64,000 nucleotides of DNA, from the NCBI GenBank assembly GCA_963744115.1, contig CAVUSI010000002.1, positions 675,641 through 739,640 of the forward strand. Reading direction: 5' to 3'. The notes under the pieces are model-generated. The model did no database searches. It was not told the DNA's origin and saw only the letters and a list, made by a program, of their open reading frames with translations. Below, piece by piece: positions 6,082 to 58,889 of this stretch (its first letter is position 1; each line of letters opens with the position of its first letter). This DNA comes from an uncultured Chloroflexia bacterium. GTDB taxonomy: Bacteria; Chloroflexota; Limnocylindria; Limnocylindrales; CSP1-4. The translations under genes were made by a program, and so were the position numbers.

Positions 6082-7503
6082 GTGCCCGTCGTGTCCGAAC
6101 CCCTGACCGCCTCGCCCGATCCCGTCGCGCCCGCCGTGCCCGAGCTCGACACGATCGTCTCGCTGAGCAAGCGCCGCGGCTTCATCTTCCCGTCGTCCGA
6201 GATCTACGGCGGGATCAATGCCGTCTGGGACTACGGACCGCTGGGCGTCGAGCTCAAGAACAACGTCAAGCGGGCCTGGTGGCGGGCGATGGTCCAGGAG
6301 CGCGACGACATCGTCGGCCTGGATGCCGGGATCCTGATGCATCCGCAGGTCTGGGTGACCTCGGGCCATGTGGGCTCGTTCAGCGACCCCCTGGTCGAGT
6401 GCGCGACGTGCCACCGCCGCTATCGGCTCGATGAGCTGCCGGGGGCGGAGGATCTGTCGGCGACCGACCTGCGCGATCCGGGCGTCGTCGCCCGACTCGG
6501 GCTGGTCTGTCCGAACGACGCCGGCCCGTTGTCCGCCCCGCGCCAGTTCAACCTCATGTTCCAGACCTACATGGGTCCCGTCCAGGAGGAGGCGTCGATC
6601 GTCTACTTCCGACCGGAGACGGCGCAGGGCAGCTATGTCAATTTCAAGAACGTTCTGCAGTCGAGTCGGAAGAAGATCCCGTTCGGTATCGCCCAGATCG
6701 GGAAGAGCTTCCGGAACGAGATCAGCCCGGGCAACTTCGTCTTCCGGATGCGCGAGTTCGAGCAGATGGAGATGCAGTACTTCGTCCGCCCGGGCGATTC
6801 GGCCGCGGCGGCGTTCGAAGACTGGCTTCCACGGCGTCGGGCCTGGTACGAGGCCTACGGCGTGGAGCCGACCCGGCTTCGCCTGCGCGAGCATGCGCCC
6901 GACGAGCTGGCGCACTACGCCAAGAAGGCGATCGACGTCGAGTATCGCTTCCCGTTCGGCTGGAAGGAGCTCGAGGGAGTCCACAACCGCGGGGACTTCG
7001 ACCTGTCCCGCCACGCGGAGGCGTCCGGCGAGAACCTCGAGTACTTCGACCCGGCGACCGAGGAGAAGTTCATCCCCTGGATCGTCGAGACGGCCGCCGG
7101 AGCCGACCGCGCGGCGTTCACGTTCCTGATCGACAGCTACCGCGAGGAAGAGGTCAAGGGCGAGACGCGCGTCTCGCTGGCCCTCCACCCCGAGCTCGCT
7201 CCGTACAAGGTGGCCGTCCTGCCGCTGCTCAAGAAGCGACCGGAGATCGTCGAGCTGTGCCACCGGATCAAGGCCGACCTCAAGCGCGACATCATGGCCG
7301 TCTACGACGACACCGCGGCGATCGGCAAGCTCTACCGGCGCCAGGACGAGATCGGCACCCCGTGGTGCGTGACCGTCGACGTCGACACGCTCGAGGACGG
7401 CGCCGTGACGATCCGCGACCGGGACAGCATGACGCAGGAGCGCGTCTCGATGGACCAGGTCAAGGCGGTCATCCTGGGGCGGCTGGCGGCGGCGCGACCC
7501 TGA
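6082..7503 (+). CDS. glyQS: glycine--tRNA ligase (alpha2 type)
   Basis: SEIYGG...WDYGPLGVELKNN, RPETAQG, GKSFRNEI, REFEQMEMQYF, GKLYRRQDEIGTPWCVTVD. Confidence 0.97.
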   Translation: MPVVSEPLTASPDPVAPAVPELDTIVSLSKRRGFIFPSSEIYGGINAVWDYGPLGVELKNNVKRAWWRAMVQERDDIVGLDAGILMHPQVWVTSGHVGSFSDPLVECATCHRRYRLDELPGAEDLSATDLRDPGVVARLGLVCPNDAGPLSAPRQFNLMFQTYMGPVQEEASIVYFRPETAQGSYVNFKNVLQSSRKKIPFGIAQIGKSFRNEISPGNFVFRMREFEQMEMQYFVRPGDSAAAAFEDWLPRRRAWYEAYGVEPTRLRLREHAPDELAHYAKKAIDVEYRFPFGWKELEGVHNRGDFDLSRHAEASGENLEYFDPATEEKFIPWIVETAAGADRAAFTFLIDSYREEEVKGETRVSLALHPELAPYKVAVLPLLKKRPEIVELCHRIKADLKRDIMAVYDDTAAIGKLYRRQDEIGTPWCVTVDVDTLEDGAVTIRDRDSMTQERVSMDQVKAVILGRLAAARP

Positions 7504-49143: not shown

Positions 49144-49298
49144 TCGACGTCCACGCCCGATCGCCCGGCACCCCAGAGCCGGCCGATCCGGGCTCAGCTC
49201 GAGAGGCTTCGGCCCGCGACGTCGCGCTCACCGCGACCGGCGGGCCGATCCCTTGCCCGGCGCCTCGCGCCCAGTGCCCGGCGCCTCGTCCCGGCCGC

Positions 49299-51637
49299 CT
49301 ACTCGACCGGGACGACGATCACGTAGTTGTCGGTCTTCTTGGGATACGTCCCGAGCGGCCGCTTCCAGGGCAGGAAGTCCTGGTCCAGGTCGCCGACCTT
49401 GTACGTGGAATCGGGCGGCCGCGAGTACCCCCAGATCGACGACAGCCGCGGGTACCAGACGTCCTCGATCCGGACGGTCGAGACCGTGAAGTCGTCGGTC
49501 AGCGCGGGGTCGGCGCTGGCGGTGAACCCCGACATCACCCACGAGTGGGCGCCGCGCCAGACCATCAGCCCGGCGGGCCGGTTCGTCAGCCGGATCTGCT
49601 TGGCCGCGGTGTGGATCGCCGCCTTGATCGACGGCAGGATGTCCACCTCGTAGTTCCCATACCCGAGCTCGGTCAGGCCCTGCGCCCAGCCCTCGGGCTC
49701 CGCGGCGCCGTCGGGCGCCGGGTCGAGCGACCGGGTCAGGTCGAACACCTTCGATTGGGTGTCCCGGGTCGTGTCCGCGCCGTCGTCCATGATGTTCATC
49801 GAGGTCTGGACCGCCGCCGCCAGGCACCACGTGTCGTGGAACTCGCCGACGTAGTCGCCCTTCTCGTAGAGGTCCATCGAGAACGGGCCGCTCGCCGTCG
49901 GGGCAGGGGAGTCGCCGGGTGCCGCGGACGCGCCGGGGGCCGCCGACCCGCCTGGGTCGGTCGAGCCGCCCGAGCCCGGGACCGACGATCCGCCTGGACC
50001 GCCCGACGAGCCCGCAGCGCCACCCGACGCCGACGGCCGATGCGAGGCGATCGGCGGGACCGCCACGACCGCCGCGGGTGGCCGCTCCCTGGCCCACGGC
50101 GTGACGACCGGGGCGACCGCGAGCGTCGCGTCGTTGAGCGCCTTGCCGGTCGCGTAGACCGTGCCGACCGCCAGCAGCACGAGACCGACCGCCACGACCG
50201 CCTGGGTCGCCCGCCGCCGCACCGGGCGAGCCGCGAACCTCGAGCGTGTCGCGCGGCGTGTCCAGCGGCCGGACGCCGATCCGCGCCATCCGCGGGGCGA
50301 GCGCCGCGCTCAGGATCCCGACCTTGACCGCCATCCCGATCGCGAACGCCGCCGGGACCGCCGACAGGCCGATCGTCGGCGACAGCGTCTGGCCGGCGAT
50401 GACGATGACCACGAACCCGGCGATCGAGGCGAGCGTCGGCAGGATCGTGTTGTGGGTGGCGTACAGCGCCCGGCTGAGGAGATGGGTCAGGCTCTCGAAC
50501 GGGATCGAGAAGGCGAACACGGCCAGGATCGTCGTCGTCCGGGCGATGTCGTCCTCCTCGAACGCCCCACCGCCGAGCAGGATCCGGATCGCCGTCCCGC
50601 CGAACACGAACAGGACGAGTGCCGCGCCCGTCGTCAGGATCGCGATCACCGCGAAGTTGATCCCGAACACCCGGCCGAAGCCGCGCCGATCGCCGGACGC
50701 CGCGGCCGTCGACATGATCGGGAAGGCCGAGATCGCGAACGCCGCGCCGATCAGGCTGACCGGGACGCTCTGGAAGTTGCGGGCGAAGCTGACCGAGCTG
50801 ACCGAGCCGGGCGCCAGCGTCGAGGCGAGCGCCGTGAAGTAGAGGAAGGTCAGCGGCTCGATCGGATGGCTGACCATCTTCGGGATCATCAGCCGGATGA
50901 ACTCGCCGACCCCCTTGGCCCGGAGCGCGAAGCTCGACTCGCGGGCGGAACGGCGTCCGGTAGATGCCCGATGAGCCGAACGCCGAGATGCGCCAGCGCG
51001 CCGGCCAACGCCCCCACCGCCGCGGCGTAGATCCCGAGCTGCCCGTAGAGGAGCACCGTCCCGACGACGATCCCGCCGTTGTAGAGCAGCGGCGCCAGGC
51101 CGTAGGCGAAGAACCGGCCGTTGGCCACGAGGATCTCGCCGAGGACGATCGACGCGGCGAAGATCACCGGCGTGAAGCACATGATCCGGAACAGGTTCAC
51201 GTACATCGCCTGCTGATCCGGCGAGAAGCCGGGGGCGATGACCGCGACGGTCTGCGGCGCGAGGACGAACAGGATCGCCGACGCGACCGCCATGACCACG
51301 ACCGCCAGGGTCAGGATCGTCCGGGCGAACGCCTTGGCCGCTCGTCGGCCTGGGTCCGGAGCCCGATGAACACCGGGATGAACGGCGCGACGAGACCCCC
51401 GGCGACGAGCACGTCGAGGGCCAGCTCCGGCAGGACGAAGGCCGCGTTGTAGGCGTCGAGCTCGGGGCCGGCCCCGAAGGTCCGGGCGAAGATCCGATCG
51501 CGGACCAGGCCCATCGCGTAGCCCATGAACCCGAGCACCGACAGGACGATCGCGCCGCGGAAGAGCGCGGACGTCAGCAGCGTCCAGCCGCGCCGGATCA
51601 GGCTCGGTGGGCGGTCCGTGATGGCGGCGTTGTCCAG
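49299..51637 (-). CDS. murJ: MurJ/MviN lipid II flippase, apparently fused to a C39/papain-like peptidase domain (3 frameshifts)
   Basis: GLVRDRIFARTFGAGPELDAYNAAFVLPE, APLLYNGGI, FARNFQSVP, SRALYA across frames joined at ~51342 and ~50960. No stop follows the flippase domain; a shift at ~50240 leads into TM + WCLAAAVQ...WRGAHSWVMSGF...EDVW. Confidence 0.7.
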
Positions 51638-51824
51638 AGGTTCCTCCCCGGCCCGCGCGGGCCCGTCGCGTGAACCCTACGACGCCCGGGCGATCCTGCG
51701 GGTGTCGCAGGTGGTCCCGCGCCCGCCCGAAGGTGGTACCGGGCGTGGCACGGTGGTACCACCATCTGACGCCCGTATCAGCCCGGGCGGAGCCACGAGG
51801 CGCCCGCCCCAACCTGGTGATTCG

Positions 51825-52053
51825 GGTCGTTCCTTGCACCCCATGCAAGATCCCTGCTGCGGTTGCACGTGGTGCAAACAACAGCTTCGGACCCCGAGTG
51901 GTCAGGGTCATTCGGCTACGAACGTGCACCCTGTGCAAACCGCGCGCAGCTTCGAGACCGAAGACCCGATCCTTTGCACCCGGTGAACGTCTCATGCACG
52001 ACCGAGTCCCAGACCGCTGACGCGCTTCGGACGTGTGCATCGTGTGCAAACGG
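51825..52053. repeat. non-coding element A with five (T/G)TGCA-N5-TGCAA palindromes
   Basis: Sites at 51834, 51863, 51924, 51974 (degenerate right arm) and 52035. Confidence 0.85.
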
Positions 52054-52117
52054 CCCTGGCCCGCCCTCGGCGCCCCGCCCTTGGCGCCCGGCGCCTCGGG
52101 CGCGGTAGATTCGGGGC

Positions 52118-52942
52118 ATGTCGACGATCCGGATCGCGGTCGCCTCGACGCCGCTGACGGCGACGCTCGATGAGGCCGTGCCGGCGGCGGTCGCCGCGAT
52201 CGAGGAGGCCGGCCGGCTCGGCGCCCGGATCGTCTGCCTGCCCGAGACGGCCATTCCCGGACATCGCGTCCAGGCTCGGCCCGTGCCCGACGTGTCGGCC
52301 GAGGCGCTCGACGCCGCCCTGCGGGTGGTAGCCGACGCGGCTCGCCGCGCCGGGGTCGTGGCGATCGTCGGGACGGAGCGCCCCACGCCCGCCGGGCGCG
52401 AGATCGTGTCGGTCGTGATCGGTGCGGACGGCGCGCGGCTCGGCGTGCAGGCGAAGACGCAGATCGACCCGAGCGAGGAGGCGGACTACGTGCCGGGAGC
52501 CGGCCGCTGCGTCTTCACGGCGGAGGGCCTGACGTTCGGGATCGCCATCTGCCACGAGGCGTTCCGCTACCCGGAGATCGCCCGCTCGCTCGCGCTCGCC
52601 GGTGCGCAGGTCATCTTCATCCCGCATTACGTGACGACCGACGACGGCTCGCTGCCGACCCGCTGGTGCGACGCCTCGAACCCCTACAACGAGAAGGCGA
52701 TCATGTGCCGGGCGCTCGAGAACACGGTCTTCGTCGCCGCGGCCGACGTCGCCGGACCCGACCAGGGCTCGATCACCGGGATCATCGCCCCGGACGGGAC
52801 GCTCGTCGCGAGCCTCGACTACGGCCGGGTCGGCGTCGTCGCCGCCGACATCGAGCTCGATCGGGCCGACCGCCTGCTCGCCCTGCGCTGGGCGCCGGAG
52901 CGCAACCTCGGGCCGCTGGATCGGTCCTCGGTCGAGGCCTGA
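52118..52942 (+). CDS. carbon-nitrogen hydrolase (nitrilase superfamily)
   Basis: CLPETAIPG (Glu), AKTQI (Lys), AICHE (Cys) triad, CRALENTVFVAAA. Confidence 0.9.
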   Translation: MSTIRIAVASTPLTATLDEAVPAAVAAIEEAGRLGARIVCLPETAIPGHRVQARPVPDVSAEALDAALRVVADAARRAGVVAIVGTERPTPAGREIVSVVIGADGARLGVQAKTQIDPSEEADYVPGAGRCVFTAEGLTFGIAICHEAFRYPEIARSLALAGAQVIFIPHYVTTDDGSLPTRWCDASNPYNEKAIMCRALENTVFVAAADVAGPDQGSITGIIAPDGTLVASLDYGRVGVVAADIELDRADRLLALRWAPERNLGPLDRSSVEA

Positions 52943-53033
52943 ACAGGGCCAGCGAATTGGCTCCCGCCGAGGCCTGAGGTCCGTCCACAGACCATCGCAG
53001 TCGCGGCAAGGGCCGAAGCCACGCGTCGGACTC

Positions 53034-53062
53034 TTGACAGTGGCACGTTGCACTGTCATAAT
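53034..53062 (+). promoter_or_regulatory. sigma70 promoter TTGACA-17-CATAAT overlapped by inverted repeat TGACAGTG-N8-CACTGTCA
   Basis: -35 at 53034-53039, -10 at 53057-53062, ATG at 53069 (leaderless geometry), palindrome 53035-53058. Confidence 0.85.
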
Positions 53063-53068
53063 AACGCC

Positions 53069-53722
53069 ATGCCCACCGACAACGAATACAGCCTGACCGA
53101 CCTCGCCGACCTGGTCGGGGTCACGCCGCGGACCGTGCGCTACTACATCGCCCAGGGCCTCCTGCCGGCGCCCGACAAGGTCGGTCCCGGGGCGCGCTAC
53201 ACGGAGGGTCATCTCGACCGGCTCCGGCTGATCCGGCGGCTCCAGCGTGAGCATCTGCCGCTGGCCGAGATCCGGACACGGCTCGAGCCGCTCGACGACG
53301 ACCAGGTCCGGGAGCTCCTGGGCTCCGAGCCGGTCGTCGTGGCCGAGGAACCCGCGATCGACTACATCCGCACCCTGCTGGCGAAGTCGACGGGCACCAC
53401 ACGGGGGGAGCCCGCCGGCTCGCCGGCGACATCGGGACCCGCACCGGCGTCGCGACCGGCGCCGAGCGCGGCACCCCTGATGCTCCGCCGGATGGAGTTC
53501 CTCGAGACCGACCGCGCGGCCGAGCCCGACGCGGCCCCACCGACCCCGCCGCCGAAACCGCCCCCACAAGCCGTCGGGGCCGACCGATCCCAGTGGGACC
53601 GGGTGGCCCTGACCCCGGACATCGAGCTGCATGTCCGACGACCACTCAGCCGCCTGCAGAACAAACAGGTCGATCGCCTGATCGCGATCGCCCGCGAACT
53701 CCTCGAGGGGGACCCGTCATGA
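53069..53722 (+). CDS. MerR-family HTH regulator
   Basis: YSLTDLADLVGVTPRTVRYYIAQGLLP...HLPLAEIR, C-terminal WDRVALTPDIELHVRRP. Confidence 0.88.
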   Translation: MPTDNEYSLTDLADLVGVTPRTVRYYIAQGLLPAPDKVGPGARYTEGHLDRLRLIRRLQREHLPLAEIRTRLEPLDDDQVRELLGSEPVVVAEEPAIDYIRTLLAKSTGTTRGEPAGSPATSGPAPASRPAPSAAPLMLRRMEFLETDRAAEPDAAPPTPPPKPPPQAVGADRSQWDRVALTPDIELHVRRPLSRLQNKQVDRLIAIARELLEGDPS

Positions 53723-54990
53723 CCTTCACCGCCCGCCCAGACCGCCACTACATCCGTCCGACCTATCGGAGCGACCGCTTCGTCCTCGCCGAGATCACGG
53801 CGCCGCCGGCCCGCCGCGAGCACGTTCGACCTCCGGTTCGCCTCGCCTTCGTCATCGACCGTTCCGGGTCGATGAGCGGCGAGAAGCTGCGGCTGGCCAA
53901 GCTCGCCGTCGAGGAGTCGCTCGCGCGGCTCCACCCGACGGACGAGTTCAGCATCGTCGTCTACGACGAGCAGATCGACGTGGTCTTCCCGTCGGCGCCC
54001 GCCACGGATGACGCCCGCCGCTCCGCCCTGGCGCGGCTCCGCGAGATCGAGGCGCGCGGCAGCACGAACCTCGGCGAGGGCTGGCTGCGCGGATGCGAGC
54101 AGGTCGCCCTCGCGCTGTCGGCCGACGGGGTCAATCGATGCCTGCTGCTGACCGACGGGCTCGCCAACGTCGGCATGACCGACCCGGAAGAGCTGGCGCG
54201 GCACGCCGGTGAGCTCCGGATCCGCGGCGTGACCACGACGACGTTCGGGGTCGGCCAGGACTTCGACGAGGTCCTGCTCCAGGCGATGGCCGATGCCGGC
54301 GGCGGCCACTTCTACTTCATCCGCGACGCGGCCGGGATCCGCGACCACGTGACGAGCGAGGTCGGGGAGACGCTCGAGATCGTCGCCCGCGAGGTGACCA
54401 TCGAGCTGACCGCGGCGGACGGCGTCATCGTCGATCCGCTCAGCCCGTTCCCGGCGGAGACGCGCGGGAGCCGGACCACGATCAGCGTCGGGGACCTTGT
54501 CGCGGACCAGCGGCTCCAGGTCGTCCTGAGGCTCAACTTCCCGTTCGGCGAGATCGGCCACACGTCGGGGACGATCCTCGGCGTGTCGGACCGGGAGGGC
54601 GTCCTCGGTCGCGCGATGGCCAAGCTCGGCTGGGAGTACGCCGACAACCACGCCAACGACGAGCAGCATCGGGACCGCGAGGTCGATCGGGCCGTCGCCC
54701 GGATCTTCGCCTCGCGGGCTCGCCAGGAGGCCACCGCCCGGAACCGGGCCGGTGACTTCCGCGGGGCGAGGGAGGCGCTCGTCAAGGTGGCGCGGCGGAT
54801 CCGCGACTACGCGGGCCGGGATGCTGAGTTGCGGGCGATCGTCGCCGAGCTCGACCGGGAAGGCGAGGTCCTCGCCGCACCGATGGCCGAGATGTCCCGC
54901 AAGGAGATGTACTTCCAGAGCTCGAACGTGGCCCGGATGCGCAGCGCCCAGGGCCGGGCGATCCGCCACGAGGACCAGCCGACGCGCTGA
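53719..54990 (+). CDS. vWA domain protein
   Basis: MIDAS DRSGSM, GSTNL, LTDGLAN, FGVGQDFDE. ATGA overlap with MerR. Confidence 0.9.
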   Translation: MTFTARPDRHYIRPTYRSDRFVLAEITAPPARREHVRPPVRLAFVIDRSGSMSGEKLRLAKLAVEESLARLHPTDEFSIVVYDEQIDVVFPSAPATDDARRSALARLREIEARGSTNLGEGWLRGCEQVALALSADGVNRCLLLTDGLANVGMTDPEELARHAGELRIRGVTTTTFGVGQDFDEVLLQAMADAGGGHFYFIRDAAGIRDHVTSEVGETLEIVAREVTIELTAADGVIVDPLSPFPAETRGSRTTISVGDLVADQRLQVVLRLNFPFGEIGHTSGTILGVSDREGVLGRAMAKLGWEYADNHANDEQHRDREVDRAVARIFASRARQEATARNRAGDFRGAREALVKVARRIRDYAGRDAELRAIVAELDREGEVLAAPMAEMSRKEMYFQSSNVARMRSAQGRAIRHEDQPTR

Positions 54991-55108
54991 TCTTCGGGTC
55001 GAGATCCAGGCCGATGTCGATTCGGCACCCCGGCGTTCGTCGTTGGGGTGTCGGGTCGACGAGGCGATCGCCTCCAGCGCCAGGGACCCGGGAGAAGGAG
55101 TTCGAGCG

Positions 55109-55459
55109 ATGGCAGGTGCACGGTTCATCCAGTTCGAAGTCGTCGGCAAGGACCAGAAGGCCCTCCAGGGCTTCTACGGCAAGCTCTTCGACTGGTCGTT
55201 CGACACGAACAATCCGACCGCCTACGGCATGACCGACCCGGCCGTGACCGGCGCGACCGTCGGTGTCGGCCCGAGCCAGGACGGCGGGAACGGTCACGTC
55301 ACCGGGTATATCGGCGTGTCCGACGTGGACGCGACCCTGGCCCGCGCCGGCGAGCTCGGCGGCCGGACGATCATGCCGAAGTTCAGCCCGGCCCCGGGTG
55401 TGGCGATCGCCCTGTTCGCCGACCCCGAAGGTCACGTCATCGGCCTCACCGAGATGTGA
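55109..55459 (+). CDS. VOC/glyoxalase family protein
   Basis: FYGKLFDWSF, YIGVSDVDATL, FADPEGHVIGL, AAGGAG RBS. Confidence 0.88.
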   Translation: MAGARFIQFEVVGKDQKALQGFYGKLFDWSFDTNNPTAYGMTDPAVTGATVGVGPSQDGGNGHVTGYIGVSDVDATLARAGELGGRTIMPKFSPAPGVAIALFADPEGHVIGLTEM

Positions 55460-55461
55460 TC

Positions 55462-55530
55462 AGCGGGGATCCTCGGGTCCCCGCTCTGGCGAACGTGCCC
55501 GGCCCTTCGGGGAGCCGGGCACGTCGTCGT
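55462..55530 (+). terminator. tandem hairpins after the VOC gene
   Basis: AGCGGGGATCC/GGGTCCCCGCT stem, then ACGTGCCCGGC...GCCGGGCACGT stem with a cTTCGg loop. Confidence 0.6.
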
Positions 55531-55651
55531 TCCGGGCCGTCGTCGTTCCGGGCGTGTCGGCGATGTCGGGAGTCGGCGTCGTTCGTGGGCGGCCGCGGAC
55601 CTCGCTGCCGAGTGCCGGGCAGGCCGCTCCGCACGGCTCCCGAGCCGATTG

Positions 55652-55882
55652 GGCACGTTCCTTGCATCGCGTGCAAGAACCCGACCTGGCTTGCACGGTG
55701 TGCAAACAACGGCCCGGCGCACCCGCCCGCAGGCCCACACCTTGCATCAGGTGCAAGCCGTCCCACCTCTCGGCCGACGGGAGGCGGCTGACGGCCCGAT
55801 CGTTGCATCGACTGCAAGATCCGAGACCACGTCGTCGATCCGAATGTCACCACGATCCGACGTGTGCATCCGGTGCAAACGC
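55652..55882. repeat. non-coding element B with five (T/G)TGCA-N5-TGCAA palindromes, homologous to element A
   Basis: Sites at 55662, 55691, 55742, 55803 and 55864. Confidence 0.87.
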
Positions 55883-55895
55883 CTTCGGCCGGAGC

Positions 55896-55950
55896 CGACC
55901 TCGGCCCGATCGCCGACCTCGGACCTCGGCCCGATCGCCGACCCTCGGCT
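55896..55950. repeat. short degenerate tandem repeat (GACCTCGGCCCGATCGCC)
   Basis: cgacctcggcccgatcgccgacctcggacctcggcccgatcgccgaccctcggc. Confidence 0.6.
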
Positions 55951-55963
55951 CGACTCGGCCGTC

Positions 55964-56386
55964 CTACCTCGGCAGGATCCCCTCGAGGCTCCAGACACGG
56001 GGTTCAAAGGGGACGAGCGAAAGGAGCACTCCCGGCTTCGACGCACGGTCGGCCGCGAAGCGCTCGCCGGCCTCGACTCCGAGGTAGCGTCCGGCGATCG
56101 CGCTCCGGAAGGGCGTCATGTCGCCGTCGGTCAGGGTGGCTTCACCTCGGACCTCGACGCCGCGGAACGGGGCGACGGTCTCGAAGATCAGGAGCGTGCA
56201 ATGAGGGTCGCGCTCGAGGTGTCGGAGCTTGACGTCGCCGCGGGCGATCACGACCTCGAACGCTTCACCCGTCCAGCGGTGCCAGACCGGCGAGGTGTGC
56301 GGCGTCCCATCGCTCCGCATCGTCGTCAGGACGGCCGCCGACGGCGCGTCGAGCAGGGTGGCCACGTCCTCGAGGAAGAGCGACAT
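55964..56386 (-). CDS. PPOX-class (F420-dependent-like) split-barrel oxidoreductase
   Basis: AVLTTMRSDGTPHTSPVW, KLRHLERDP, GVEVRG. Confidence 0.85.
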   Translation of the reverse strand: MSLFLEDVATLLDAPSAAVLTTMRSDGTPHTSPVWHRWTGEAFEVVIARGDVKLRHLERDPHCTLLIFETVAPFRGVEVRGEATLTDGDMTPFRSAIAGRYLGVEAGERFAADRASKPGVLLSLVPFEPRVWSLEGILPR

Positions 56387-56462
56387 CCGAACGAGGATAC
56401 CGCCCGCCGGCGCCGCATCGGGCGCCCGCGAACGTGCCGATGTGGCCAGATTCGAACGAATG

Positions 56463-56471
56463 TGCTAGGCT
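56463..56471 (+). promoter_or_regulatory. extended -10 (TGcTAGGCT) of the cold-shock gene, ~95-nt 5' UTR
   Basis: TG-n-TAGGCT at 56463-56471, GGAGG RBS before GTG 56572. Confidence 0.55.
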
Positions 56472-56571
56472 TGTGACTCGCCAACCTTTGGCGAGCCTAC
56501 GCGTGGTCGACCCCTTTCTCGAACGGACCGTGCGCCTGCGGTTCCCAGTTCGGGAAAATGTGGAGGTCACT

Positions 56572-56775
56572 GTGACCACCGGTACCATCAAGAAGGTCGT
56601 CGCCGATCGCGGCTTCGGCTTCATCACCGCCGATGACGAGAAGGATTACTTCTTCCATCGTGGCGGCCTCGACTCCTCGCTCGACTTCGACCGTCTGGTC
56701 GGCGGCGAGAAGGTCACGTTCGACATCGAGCAGAGCCCCAAGGGCCCGCGCGCGCTGAACGTCCAGAGCGCCTAG
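56572..56775 (+). CDS. cold-shock domain protein
   Basis: GTIKKVVADRGFGFI (RNP1), YFFH (RNP2), KGPRALNV, 67 aa. Confidence 0.95.
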   Translation: MTTGTIKKVVADRGFGFITADDEKDYFFHRGGLDSSLDFDRLVGGEKVTFDIEQSPKGPRALNVQSA

Positions 56776-56807
56776 TCGACGCACCGTTCCCCTTCCGGGA
56801 ACACACG

Positions 56808-56834
56808 AGACCCCGTCTTCGGACGGGGTCTTCT
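56808..56834 (+). terminator. intrinsic terminator with UUCG tetraloop
   Basis: AGACCCCGTC-TTCG-GACGGGGTCT then tct. Confidence 0.85.
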
Positions 56835-56874
56835 GGTATCCGGCGCTGACCGCGGCGCGACACGCCGACCGCTG

Positions 56875-56923
56875 AGCCGCTCCCGCGACGCGTCAGCCGC
56901 TCCCGCGACGCGTCAGCCGCTCC
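56875..56923. repeat. 20-bp tandem duplication (AGCCGCTCCCGCGACGCGTC x2.4) spanning a stop codon
   Basis: Units at 56875 and 56895, partial unit at 56915. Confidence 0.75.
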
Positions 56924-58889
56924 ACCGGACGCGGACCACCTTGACCGGCTGAGCTAGGCCCTTGAGTGCCACGGTCTCGACATCGGCCGGCGCGAACTCG
57001 CGGCCGGACGCCTCGACGGTCTCGACGCTGGCCAGGATCTCGTCGCCCGACGCGTGGCCGCCGATCCGGGCGGCCTCGTGGACGCCGCGCCCGGCATACC
57101 CCTTGTCCACGCGCACCGCATCGGCCTGGTGGATGCCCACCCGGACCCGCGGGGCGAAGCCGGTCCGCAGGCGATGCTCGGCGAGGTCGCGCTGGAGGTC
57201 GATCGCGCAGGCGATCGCCCGATCCGGTGAGGCGAACGCGAGGAAGAACCCGTCGCCGGCGTGGTCGATCTCCTCGCCGTGGTGGCGGGACAGCAGCGCC
57301 CGGACCGCCTGGCGATGCCAGCGCAGGAGGTCGTCCCAGGCGTCGTCGCCGATCGCCTCGAGCAGCCCCGTCGAGCCGACGATGTCCGTGACCATGAACG
57401 TCCGGGTGACCCGGGTCGAGGCGCCGGATCGTTCGCGGTCGGCGAGCATCCGCCCGACCACGATCAGGTCGGGTTCGGCCCCGAGCCGCTCGAACACCGA
57501 GCGCGCCGAGCGGAGCTCGACCGCCGCCGCCTCGTTCTGGCCCATCTCACGCTGGATCGCCGCCAGCGCGACCCGGGCCCGCGCGGCTTCGTACGGACTG
57601 TCGGCCTCGATCCACTCCCGCACGGCTTCCCGAAGGTCGTTGCGGGTCTGGTCCGCTGGTGAGGTCCCAGCCTGGATCATGCCCCGGCTGTAGGCCCGCA
57701 TCGCTCGGAGCGCGGCCGTGTCCCAGGCCGCGGCGATGTCCGCCAGCTCCGATGCCGCGGACCGCGCCGCCTCGGCATCGCCGGCCGCCAGGGCGATATC
57801 CACCAGGGGATAGAGGATCTTCGCCCGACGGAGAGGATGCGACGGCGAGCCGATCATCGGCTGCATCGGGAGCGTCATCGGGTCGTGCAGGAGACCTTGG
57901 AGCTCGGACAGCGCCTCACCCACCTGCCCTCGCGCGGCCATGAGGCGCGCCAAGCCGGGCTGTGGATCGCGTCCGAGCTCATGCGCCGTTCCGAACGCCT
58001 CTTCGGCGGCATCTGCGTCGCCCCGCTGCTGGAGGATCTCGCCGATCTGGTACCAGCCCTCGGCGGCGACCCCGGTGTTGAAGTCGCGCAGCTCGGCCAC
58101 GCCCCGGCGCGCTTCGCGTTCCGCCTCCGGCCAGTCGCCCCGCAGCCGAAGCACCTCCGCACGATGGATCCGGCAGGTCCCGGGAAAGCCAGAAGCCAGC
58201 GACTGGCGGTCGCACCAGCGGGTGGCGGCGTCCGACAGCTCGCCGGCTCGACGGTATTCGCCCAGATCGTTCTCGGCCATCACCGACATGCAATACACGC
58301 TGTTGGTGGTGAGCGGCTGAAGTTGACCGGAGATCGCCGCGATGCCCGCCTGACCGAGCAACGCCAGCCCGTCGTTGACGCGCGACAGGCCGATCAACGC
58401 CCGGCCGCTGGCCGTCAGGCCCTCCGCCTGGACATCGAGGTTGCCCGTCTGGCGTCCGAGCTCGACCGCTCCCTCGGCGGCGGCGAGCGCCGCGGCAGGA
58501 TCGCCCTGCGCCAGCGCGAGATGGGAGGCGTAGACGGCGAAGCGACCGTGGACGGCCGACGGTGGCTGGTCGGCCAAGAGCTCCTGGGCACGGCTGAACC
58601 ACCCGACCGCCAGTCCGACCGAGAGCTTCTGGATGTGATCGAACGCGAGGTTCAAGGCGACGTTCGCGGCCGGCACCGGGGCGCCGACGGCAAGGTACTC
58701 GCCGAACGCACGCTCCCGAAGGGCGATCGCCTCGCCGAGATGGCCGCACCACCAGGCCGCGTCGCCGAGCGCGGCGACATCGTCCGGATCGACGAGGGTC
58801 GTGGGATCCACGGCCGAGTAGGCGGTGTACGCCGCCAGCCAATCCCGTCGCTCGACCGCCGCCCGTGCGACCTCGACGCCGTCCGCCAT
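56913..58889 (-). CDS. TPR-like helical sensor fused to class III adenylate/guanylate cyclase domain
   Basis: N-terminal helical repeats (GTCRIHRAEVLRLRGDW, PQPGLARL, PYEAARAR), C-terminal MVTDIVGST, AGDGFFLAF, RVGIH, VHEAARI, LKGL. Confidence 0.85.
   Translation of the reverse strand: MADGVEVARAAVERRDWLAAYTAYSAVDPTTLVDPDDVAALGDAAWWCGHLGEAIALRERAFGEYLAVGAPVPAANVALNLAFDHIQKLSVGLAVGWFSRAQELLADQPPSAVHGRFAVYASHLALAQGDPAAALAAAEGAVELGRQTGNLDVQAEGLTASGRALIGLSRVNDGLALLGQAGIAAISGQLQPLTTNSVYCMSVMAENDLGEYRRAGELSDAATRWCDRQSLASGFPGTCRIHRAEVLRLRGDWPEAEREARRGVAELRDFNTGVAAEGWYQIGEILQQRGDADAAEEAFGTAHELGRDPQPGLARLMAARGQVGEALSELQGLLHDPMTLPMQPMIGSPSHPLRRAKILYPLVDIALAAGDAEAARSAASELADIAAAWDTAALRAMRAYSRGMIQAGTSPADQTRNDLREAVREWIEADSPYEAARARVALAAIQREMGQNEAAAVELRSARSVFERLGAEPDLIVVGRMLADRERSGASTRVTRTFMVTDIVGSTGLLEAIGDDAWDDLLRWHRQAVRALLSRHHGEEIDHAGDGFFLAFASPDRAIACAIDLQRDLAEHRLRTGFAPRVRVGIHQADAVRVDKGYAGRGVHEAARIGGHASGDEILASVETVEASGREFAPADVETVALKGLAQPVKVVRVRWSG

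Follow-up and report, generated by a model that had tools for sequence, protein, structure and literature searches.

Helically phased palindrome arrays in an uncultured Chloroflexota genome and an XRE-nuclease-fold protein as their candidate binder

A stretch of 64,000 nucleotides from contig CAVUSI010000002.1 of an uncultured Chloroflexia bacterium (positions 675,641 to 739,640; hereafter the window) carries two groups of five short palindromes, arrays A and B, which lie 3.8 kb apart. The locus raises the question of whether these arrays act as DNA or as RNA, and of what would read them. They proved to belong to a family of arrays phased on the DNA helix. Among the gene families next to such arrays, none recurs across genera except one that encodes a protein with an XRE-type helix-turn-helix (HTH) and a predicted nuclease fold, which is considered here as the candidate binder. 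The assembly holding the window (GCA_963744115.1, referred to as G000) comprises 3.25 Mb with 71% G+C in three contigs and is 86% complete.

Organization, helical phase and conservation of the arrays

All ten sites of arrays A and B, and the spacings between them, were located as reported in a preliminary description of the window made from the sequence alone.

Array A, 51834..52049 (+): five 15-bp palindromes between murJ (-) and a nitrilase gene (+); sites 51834-51848, 51863-51877, 51924-51938, 51974-51988 and 52035-52049; spacings 29, 61, 50 and 61 bp.
Array B, 55662..55878 (+): five palindromes between the 3' ends of a VOC gene (+) and a PNPOx-like gene (-); sites 55662-55676, 55691-55705, 55742-55756, 55803-55817 and 55864-55878; spacings 29, 51, 61 and 61 bp.

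The right arm of the array A site at 51974 (TTGCACCCGGTGAAC) is degenerate, and this is the sole site of the ten without an exact TGCA-N5-TGCA. Exact copies of that motif occurred nine times in the window against 0.14 expected (standard deviation 0.38), and none of 100 shuffles reached nine. G000 has six such arrays (A to F), all of them intergenic, 200-320 bp in size and composed of five to seven 15-bp palindromes. The fuller form of the consensus is TTGCAC-N3-GTGCAA, often TTGCACC-N-GGTGCAA, with a G+C-rich centre in this genome. Positions with at least 10 of the 12 consensus bases numbered 46 in G000, of which 31 lay in arrays; those with at least 11 of 12 numbered 24, and every one of them was inside the six arrays. 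The motif is thus well above background, a point that the preliminary description had singled out for checking.

One internal plan was common to the six arrays: site 1 is followed at 29 bp by site 2, at a further 51/61 bp by site 3, at 50/61/72 bp by site 4 and at 61 bp by site 5. Arrays E and F carried an additional upstream site or pair, and the only spacings found in arrays of G000 were 29, 50/51, 61, 64 or 72 bp. The flanks that had been described as conserved site by site between A and B were real and were common to all six arrays, with GTGCAAACAAC(A/G)GC 3' of site 2 and GA(C/T)GT 5' of site 5. Linkers of different arrays within the genome were unalignable, so that the array copies were alike in sites and spacing only, and the flanking genes differed from array to array in all six. 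Because one internal plan is common to all, the six arrays appear to descend from one ancestral array, of which, to judge from these alignments, only sites and spacing have been retained.

The helical phase of the sites was determined on a set pooled from G000 and related genomes (157 sites, 122 spacings). The spacings fell at 29/30, 39-41, 50/51, 60-64, 72, 79-81, 102/103, 112/113, 153 and 173 bp in 116 of the 122 cases. The best period was 10.16-10.17 bp with a mean cosine of 0.82, and at 10.5 bp the mean cosine was only 0.29. The periodicity of about 10 bp that had been proposed for genome-wide spacings was also found in single genomes.

G000 alone: 24 spacings, mean cosine 0.82 at a period of 10.15 bp, reached by 0 of 5000 jittered sets.
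G045 alone: 26 spacings, mean cosine 0.92 at 10.17 bp, reached by 0 of 5000 jittered sets.
G056 alone: 10 spacings, mean cosine 0.84 at 10.2 bp, reached by 1 of 5000 jittered sets.

Differences in linker length between arrays amounted to whole turns (51, 61 and 72 bp). The site centres are integral turns apart at about 10.17 bp per turn, and all sites therefore lie on one face of the duplex. A period below 10.5 bp would fit DNA held on a protein surface, and the reach of the 10.17-bp period to 17 turns argues for a wrapped or filament-like complex.

Changes in the two arms were compared in 148 sites and were independent of each other. At pair 5/11, 12 sites were changed on the left only, 8 on the right only and none on both sides, and no arm pair showed an excess of complementary double changes (Fisher p >0.2 each). 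As the arms vary independently, the sites are most likely read as double-stranded DNA by a symmetric dimer and not as RNA hairpins.

In G015, a close relative whose flanking proteins are mostly 85-99% identical, arrays correspond in position to A, B, C, E and F according to the flanking genes; the counterpart of array D was assigned by flank similarity alone. In five aligned array pairs of G000 and G015, 292 of 312 site positions (93.6%) and 748 of 967 linker positions (77.4%) were identical, and the sites were defined in G000, so that the bias opposes higher site conservation. Between array B and its ortholog, 59 of 60 site positions and 129 of 183 linker positions were identical. Spacing was kept between the two genomes despite linker indels. 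The higher conservation of sites than of linkers argues for selection in place, with the host keeping arrays that stand apart from the binder gene (solo arrays) whatever their output may be. Across 61 genomes of the bacterial family, site counts were 24 in G000, 36 in G045, 11 in G056, 9 in G093 and 8 in G078, and the other 56 genomes had 0-5 sites, with controls at 0-6. Within the genus, G000, G015 and G005 had 24, 25 and 20 sites, a few genomes had one array and most were at background.

The XRE-nuclease-fold protein as candidate binder

The preliminary description had suggested a search for a gene family co-occurring with the arrays, and an XRE-nuclease-fold protein was found, with arrays lying 3' of its homologues in other genera as well. 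The G000 gene lies outside the window.

G000:C3:1932197-1932853: open reading frame (ORF) of the 218-amino-acid (aa) candidate binder, ending 56 bp 5' of array E.

Residues 21-78 form an XRE-type HTH, with matches to PF13560 (HTH_31, E 7e-08) and PF01381 (HTH_3, E 6.9e-07). The best PDB sequence matches were ClgR (3f51, E 0.0012) and SinR, and structural matches of the HTH reached Z 8-9.5. According to PMC3613350, the ClgR core motif is CGC-N5-GCG, which shares its N5 geometry with the array site. Searched against NCBIfam and PADLOC, the whole protein gave generic HTH matches only, and its C-terminal 130 residues matched no Pfam, NCBIfam or PADLOC family; in the ESM Atlas the C-terminal domain matched unnamed Chloroflexota clusters only. 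Modelled alone, the domain reached a predicted local distance difference test score (pLDDT) of 89, and the top 50 structural matches of the model were nearly all PD-(D/E)xK proteins. They included 1y88 (Z 8.7, root-mean-square deviation 3.3, 101 residues aligned), the XisH-like 2okf (Z 8.2), NucS 2vld (Z 7.9) and Card1 (Z 7.7), with restriction enzymes, Hjc and Vsr ranking after them. Residues D127, E141, E143 and K159 are invariant (D...ExE...K); D127 stands just before one strand of the domain and E141-x-E143 at the end of the next. The model indicates that the C-terminal domain has a PD-(D/E)xK nuclease fold with an alpha/beta core, in which catalysis is putative.

The protein was predicted to form a homodimer with a score of 0.78 against 0.00 for the best control, although the score may reflect likeness to solved XRE dimers. 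Of proteins with solved paired structures, 20 of 30 reached the mark of 0.78; of those whose solved form is a single chain, 1 of 23 did. At least 89% of the contacts were common to the runs, and the partner pLDDT was at least 85. The predicted interface is formed by the N-terminal XRE region and leaves the nuclease-fold domains free.

Linkage of gene and array was not confined to G000. The closest homologues in the 61-genome sample were in G056 (69% identity) and G093 (60%), both of which are array-bearing. At least 8 of 12 homologue loci, in 12 genomes, had phased palindromes 3' of the stop codon, with variant arms; they began about 30-120 bp after the stop codon (330 bp in G075). The array of the G056 homologue had the form GTGCAG..GTGCAC with spacings of 61, 50, 51 and 30 bp, and the arms at other homologues were TTGCGC..GCGCAA in G093 and G081 and TGCCG..CGGCA in G058. 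Metagenomes yielded 558 protein homologues, all with generic names, the named ones being from Chloroflexota and Candidatus Limnocylindria. At 67 metagenome loci, TT..AA palindromes of the 6-3-6 format numbered 53 in 22.9 kb of downstream sequence, 3 in 22.6 kb of upstream sequence and 0 in 41.0 kb of coding sequence. At least one such palindrome was present downstream at 20 of 58 loci and upstream at 2 of 57.

The palindrome changed with the recognition helix of the linked protein. The helix [AS]E[VI]SRIERG went with TTGCAC in G000, G015, G011, G005, G010 and G045, the helices AASI, AASV, ASAV, KSAV and ASAL went with the half-site TTGCG[CT], and SSATV went with TTTCAC. Within the genus, all five genomes with an ortholog of the candidate had arrays, including the three array-rich ones (24, 25 and 20 sites), and 10 of the 14 genomes in which no ortholog was found had no array. 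The next downstream gene was a convergent principal-sigma-like gene at 13 of 29 loci. G000 fits this neighbourhood once a GH9 gene is discounted, which is absent at the array E locus in the five congeners compared and in G015. The recurrence of the sigma-like gene points to an old home of the gene and array module beside rpoD. The solo arrays then appear, from their distribution, to be lineage-specific additions.

We lean towards the reading that the arrays are operators of a symmetric dimer of the 218-aa protein, assembled into a cooperative body on one face of the DNA and serving as a cis barrier or loop anchor. Each 15-bp box would be occupied by one dimer on the common face, and the free C-terminal domains would contact neighbouring dimers 3-7 turns apart, so that each array would become one cooperative nucleoprotein body, probably wrapped or looped. 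Such a body could insulate adjacent transcription units from each other or be a barrier in cis that blocks read-through; arrays B and D are placed between convergent 3' ends, and convergent genes also flank the home locus. It could also anchor loops or allow pairing between arrays, for example of A with B. Barrier and loop are outputs that we infer. The multi-site scaffold for a dimeric DNA-binding protein put forward in the preliminary description agrees with the spacings near 10.17 bp, with the independence of the arms, with the conservation of sites over linkers and, as a fourth support, with a linked candidate binder that is predicted to dimerise.

Several observations weigh against this reading. 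The invariant nuclease-type residues and the variable genes beside the arrays fit a recombination or mobility system at least as well, and the single fold Z-scores are middling (8.7 at most). The 18 sequencing runs listed for this uncultured organism's DNA included no RNA run, and the best DNA run contained 0.26 of the sequence words. With TT..AA arms alone counted, downstream palindromes were present at 20 of 58 metagenome loci, which leaves room for a larger true share or for a looser link. Phylogeny confounds the covariation between helix and half-site, for which a few dozen partly redundant loci were available. The incomplete congeners G002, G014, G016 and G006 have one array each and no ortholog was found in them, and a second paralogue in G000 (C3:84736-85347, 47% identity) has no downstream array. 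The palindrome with its 51/62-bp spacing also occurs in Paenibacillus, in five searched genomes of which no full-length homologue was found, and the site type is therefore not exclusive to the XRE-nuclease family.

The nearest parallel to a cooperative dimer array is offered by XRE repressors of the lambda CI or ClgR type. Lambda CI at OL and OR is a cooperative multi-operator system. Repressors of this type also have an XRE HTH, a dimer on a palindrome (predicted for the protein described here) and several operators per locus, and CI-type repressors have a separate C-terminal domain available for dimer-dimer contacts and long-range looping. Unlike their operators, the arrays do not overlap the gene's own promoter but are placed 3' of the gene or in intergenic regions unrelated to it, they comprise five to seven sites over 200-320 bp at 3-7 turns, and solo arrays are dispersed. 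The C-terminal domain of the candidate has a nuclease fold and not the oligomerisation and cleavage domain of CI. No described family fits the pairing of an XRE-nuclease-fold protein with a phased array, and neither the arrays nor this protein family turned up in a search of the literature, where the motif itself led to one LysR footprinting paper. Should the pairing prove right, it would be a new DNA-protein system in an uncultured, abundant soil lineage (Chloroflexota, class Limnocylindria). It would provide a legible recognition code, with dozens of natural protein-operator pairs that differ at one or two helix residues and at a single base pair, useful both for understanding XRE-type specificity and for engineering it. 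Arrays at the borders of variable genes would offer a testable tie of a sequence-specific HTH-nuclease to genome plasticity, and they flag long 'empty' intergenic regions for which annotation pipelines offer no explanation.

Alternative readings and known systems

The arrays could instead be a platform for nuclease-driven recombination or mobility, a reading that we regard as unlikely. The HTH-nuclease would gather on the arrays and cut or nick there. Gene gain and loss would then be concentrated at the arrays, or else the array would be copied to further intergenic places, with or without its gene; array E, which is linked to the gene, would in that case have given rise to the five solo arrays as non-autonomous copies. 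The PD-(D/E)xK fold with its invariant D...ExE...K, the multi-copy state of the gene family (up to 11 matches per genome), the descent of the six arrays from a common ancestor with one plan and the patchy distribution of TTGCAC-type arrays among genera are in line with this. Gains and losses at the arrays bear on it too. Array C was cleanly missing in all four other congeners examined, where its arsR and MFS flanks lie close together. The genes around arrays A and B in the window are as follows.

49228..51538 (-): murJ, in the frames 49228-51180 and 51311-51538, with a PF03023 match at the N-terminus; left neighbour of array A.
52118..52942 (+): carbon-nitrogen hydrolase (nitrilase superfamily) gene, PF00795, E 2.3e-24.
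53034..53722 (+): MerR-family regulator gene (53048-53722) with its promoter/operator, PF13411.
53593..54990 (+): vWA-domain protein gene, PF00092; the real start may be further 3'.
54752..55459 (+): glyoxalase/VOC-family gene, PF18029.
55964..56386 (-): PNPOx-like gene, PF01243, convergent on array B.

The nitrilase-MerR-vWA-VOC gene content between the two arrays, as first proposed, is borne out by these Pfam matches. The start listed for the VOC ORF is probably too early, since the ortholog in G015 has 148 aa. The nitrilase gene starts 68 bp 3' of site 5 of array A and is variable among congeners; in G001 it lies on another contig. At the place of the window, the congeners have the following order of genes (csp, presumed cold-shock gene).

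G003: murJ, VOC, csp.
G017: murJ, about 2 kb of other sequence, VOC, csp.
G001: murJ, MerR-vWA-VOC, csp.
G000 and G015: additionally the units of array A with the hydrolase gene and of array B with the PNPOx-like gene.

Array A with the nitrilase gene and array B with the PNPOx-like gene are thus both missing from this place in G001, G003 and G017, and MerR-vWA-VOC or VOC alone stays. The two units are separate, and A and B therefore bracket no single mobile block, a point for which the preliminary description had proposed a look at presence and absence of the enclosed genes. Each of the two arrays appears to have come or gone with one neighbouring gene. The genes beside arrays A, E and F differ even between G000 and G015, and in G015 additional genes, about 2.4 kb in all, are inserted precisely between array A and the hydrolase gene. 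By these comparisons, arrays seem to have come or gone as whole units while the genus diverged, and they sit at the borders of variable genes. The G015 insert includes a 430-aa ORF (L042 12154-13446 (+), 11286-11759 (-)).

Against a recombination platform, the orthologous solo arrays keep their sites over their linkers and their phasing through indels; this retention would therefore reflect selection in place, which is unexpected for fixed dead copies of a selfish element. All six arrays keep their synteny in G015 and have therefore not moved recently. Features of a miniature inverted-repeat transposable element were not seen, neither terminal inverted repeats beyond the palindromes nor target duplications, the empty sites of congeners being too diverged to define ends. 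Nuclease activity itself is putative, as it comes from the modelled fold. The modular restriction enzyme SdaI (2ixs, Z 6.8) likewise combines an HTH reader with a PD-(D/E)xK fold, the target being an interrupted palindrome, and the array site presumably contains cores recognised by known type II enzymes. SdaI-type enzymes differ from the candidate in domain order and in the candidate's XRE reader; ordered arrays of unprotected-looking sites kept under selection also set the present system apart, as does its putative cleavage. No methyltransferase partner turned up near the candidate, and no search was aimed at one. We would give only a small chance to the bolder form, in which an active array-guided nuclease makes the arrays local engines of gene turnover while its recognition code diversifies between lineages, helix and palindrome changing together. 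The phased sites would gather the nuclease on one face of the DNA, and cutting there would be controlled. If true, it would be a chromosomal system of gene capture and exchange, or a self-copying module of gene and array, of a kind not yet described.

That a protein of another kind occupies the arrays, of the Lrp/AsnC type or a neighbouring MerR or ArsR, with the XRE gene linked by coincidence, is improbable. Archaeal Lrp-like proteins bind abcde-WWW-e'd'c'b'a' palindromes, and Ss-LrpB binds TTGYAWWWWWTRCAA, according to PMC2715240; PMC2995911 places Lrp sites on one face, 2-3 turns apart, with wrapping of the DNA. The 13-15-bp format of such operators (5-3-5), their imperfect multiple sites and their phasing resemble the arrays, and the period of about 10.2 bp would suit wrapped DNA. 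The array centre, unlike theirs, is G+C-rich and not A/T, and the spacings extend to 5-7 turns against 2-3. G000 has two AsnC-family genes. Paralogue 1, which is 95% identical in G017, a genome free of arrays, was not found in the array-rich G045 (73% complete) and so does not co-occur with the arrays; paralogue 2 is broken over two reading frames. Both MerR and ArsR have conserved palindromes of their own that differ from the array site, and across genera only the XRE-nuclease family recurs beside arrays.

Arrays in Paenibacillus speak for a different binder. Many species of that genus have intergenic TTGCAC-TTT-GTGCAA arrays with 51/52- and 61/62-bp spacing and a period of 10.21 bp (19 spacings), and no full-length XRE-nuclease homologue was found in the five Paenibacillus genomes searched. 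Some of these arrays consist of 113-bp tandem units and others have free linkers, and the flanking genes are unrelated. A scan of 15 Paenibacillus loci at the Rfam gathering threshold gave riboswitches elsewhere only.

Paenibacillus array records: L046, L047, L053, L059, L067, L081, L094-L096, L100, L103, L108, L109, L120.

In one of them (L094:7174-7842 (+)), a 222-aa protein (P0001) ends 66 bp before the array, which appears from the coordinates to continue as an array of about 900 bp and at least 13 sites in L053. P0001 has a weakly REase_MTES_1575-like N-terminal and a winged-helix-like C-terminal domain, a domain pair of the same kind as in the candidate but in reverse order, and is known from this single locus. 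It was set aside as the Paenibacillus binder, because homologues of it are missing from the remaining array loci and its profile does not significantly match the XRE-nuclease family.

The adjacent MerR protein, named in the preliminary description as a possible binder, was rejected. It has its own promoter-embedded palindrome at 53034-53062, unlike the array site and conserved in the array-free congener G001, in a promoter of the form TTGACA-17-CATAAT (11 of 12 matches). ArsR, encoded next to array C, was rejected for a similar reason, since it has a different conserved AT-rich palindrome of its own. This palindrome (GATTTATATAAATC, flanked by TCAAC/GTTGA) stands 5' of an arsR-pgsA-ino1 operon in 6 of 6 aligned congeners (L021 ~6330-6400 in G000:C1, beside array C) and is probably the ArsR operator.

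A role in chromosome mechanics, as a centromere-like array comparable to sopC with SopB or as a polar replication-fork barrier, is likewise improbable. In the sopB-sopC system the array lies directly 3' of the binder gene and its palindromic repeats stand at integral turns, both as in array E. The six arrays would be co-oriented with the fork direction given by GC skew if the terminus lay between E and F, and array C is 22 kb from dnaA on contig C1. Array E differs from sopC, however, in having no partner ATPase nearby (no ParA-type gene among the predicted genes scanned beside it, cupin and GH9, with rpoD beyond) and in its binder, which has an XRE fold and is not ParB-like or ribbon-helix-helix-like. 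Its linkers are not conserved tandem repeats, and the arrays are chromosomal, dispersed and syntenic between species. The GC skew is weak and contradictory, with a second origin-like minimum on C3 and dnaA on C1, the sole dif-like motif is 360 kb from E and F, and the genome is in three contigs.

Arrays E and F stand 24 kb apart and back to back around the cumulative GC skew maximum of contig C3. The positions for this picture of E and F, skew, dnaA and dif are G000:C3:1932907-1957921, C1:412627 and C3:1575501.

The remaining reading, in which the arrays give a structured RNA or a transcribed hairpin, repetitive extragenic palindromic (REP) or CRISPR-like repeat, is scarcely credible: each site is foldable as a 6-bp stem with a 3-nt loop and several variants are T-G combinations that would leave wobble pairs on one strand, but no Rfam match fell on the arrays in a scan of window positions 50000-58000 (E up to 1), the arms show no compensatory excess and the spacing is quantised by the helical repeat of DNA, which is meaningless for RNA. 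The repeat-spacer non-coding RNA offered as an option in the preliminary description falls with it. For REPs in particular, no Y1/RAYT transposase (PF01797) was found in G000, which is 86% complete, and the sites start with TTGCAC and lack the GTAG/CGTC tag that defines most REPs according to PMC3733652. A CRISPR array, judged by repeat features alone, was rejected; the repeats are imperfect and 15 bp long, against identical repeats of 23-50 bp with unique spacers in CRISPR arrays, and the 'spacers' here have orthologues in the same position in another species, with 77% identity.

Minor observations at the window and in other genomes

G+C-rich short tandem repeats with units of 14-25 bp lie beside the arrays (window 52060-52087, 55522-55553 and 55897-55943), and those round array C are greatly expanded in G015 (L045 ~6100-6370 and 6610-7000). 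In G056, of another genus, two very similar arrays in the same orientation lie 3.8 kb apart with identical spacings of 51 and 113 bp (L039 5042-5220 and 8814-8992), an arrangement that may be compared with arrays A and B.

Right of array B, a sub-threshold match to the cspA thermoregulator leader was found at window 56562-56836 (+), with 30.8 bits against a gathering score of 78. The region stands 5' of the presumed cold-shock gene and is kept in congeners. Several genes were split over reading frames, namely murJ (window 49228-51538), an AsnC-family gene (L124 1256-1746), an HpcH-type aldolase gene and the end of an RNase J gene (L022 7295-8180 and 6678-6953). They could be assembly indels or pseudogenes, and lone frameshifts in this assembly are unsafe to interpret as biology.

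A global exact scan for the palindrome returned 77 stretches, most of which were unrelated types of repeat. Arrays with a period of 42-43 bp were seen in Bacteroidales, Tannerella, Hymenobacter, a proteobacterial metagenome-assembled genome (MAG), an unclassified bacterial MAG and Polyangium. The records of other repeats are L056, L058, L062, L076, L083, L091-L093, L104, L110 and L111; L114; and L048 with other Corynebacterium loci. In a Geomonas record the palindrome was repeated at fourteen successive spacings of 21 bp, and in Corynebacterium three palindrome sites lay 17 bp apart at one conserved locus.

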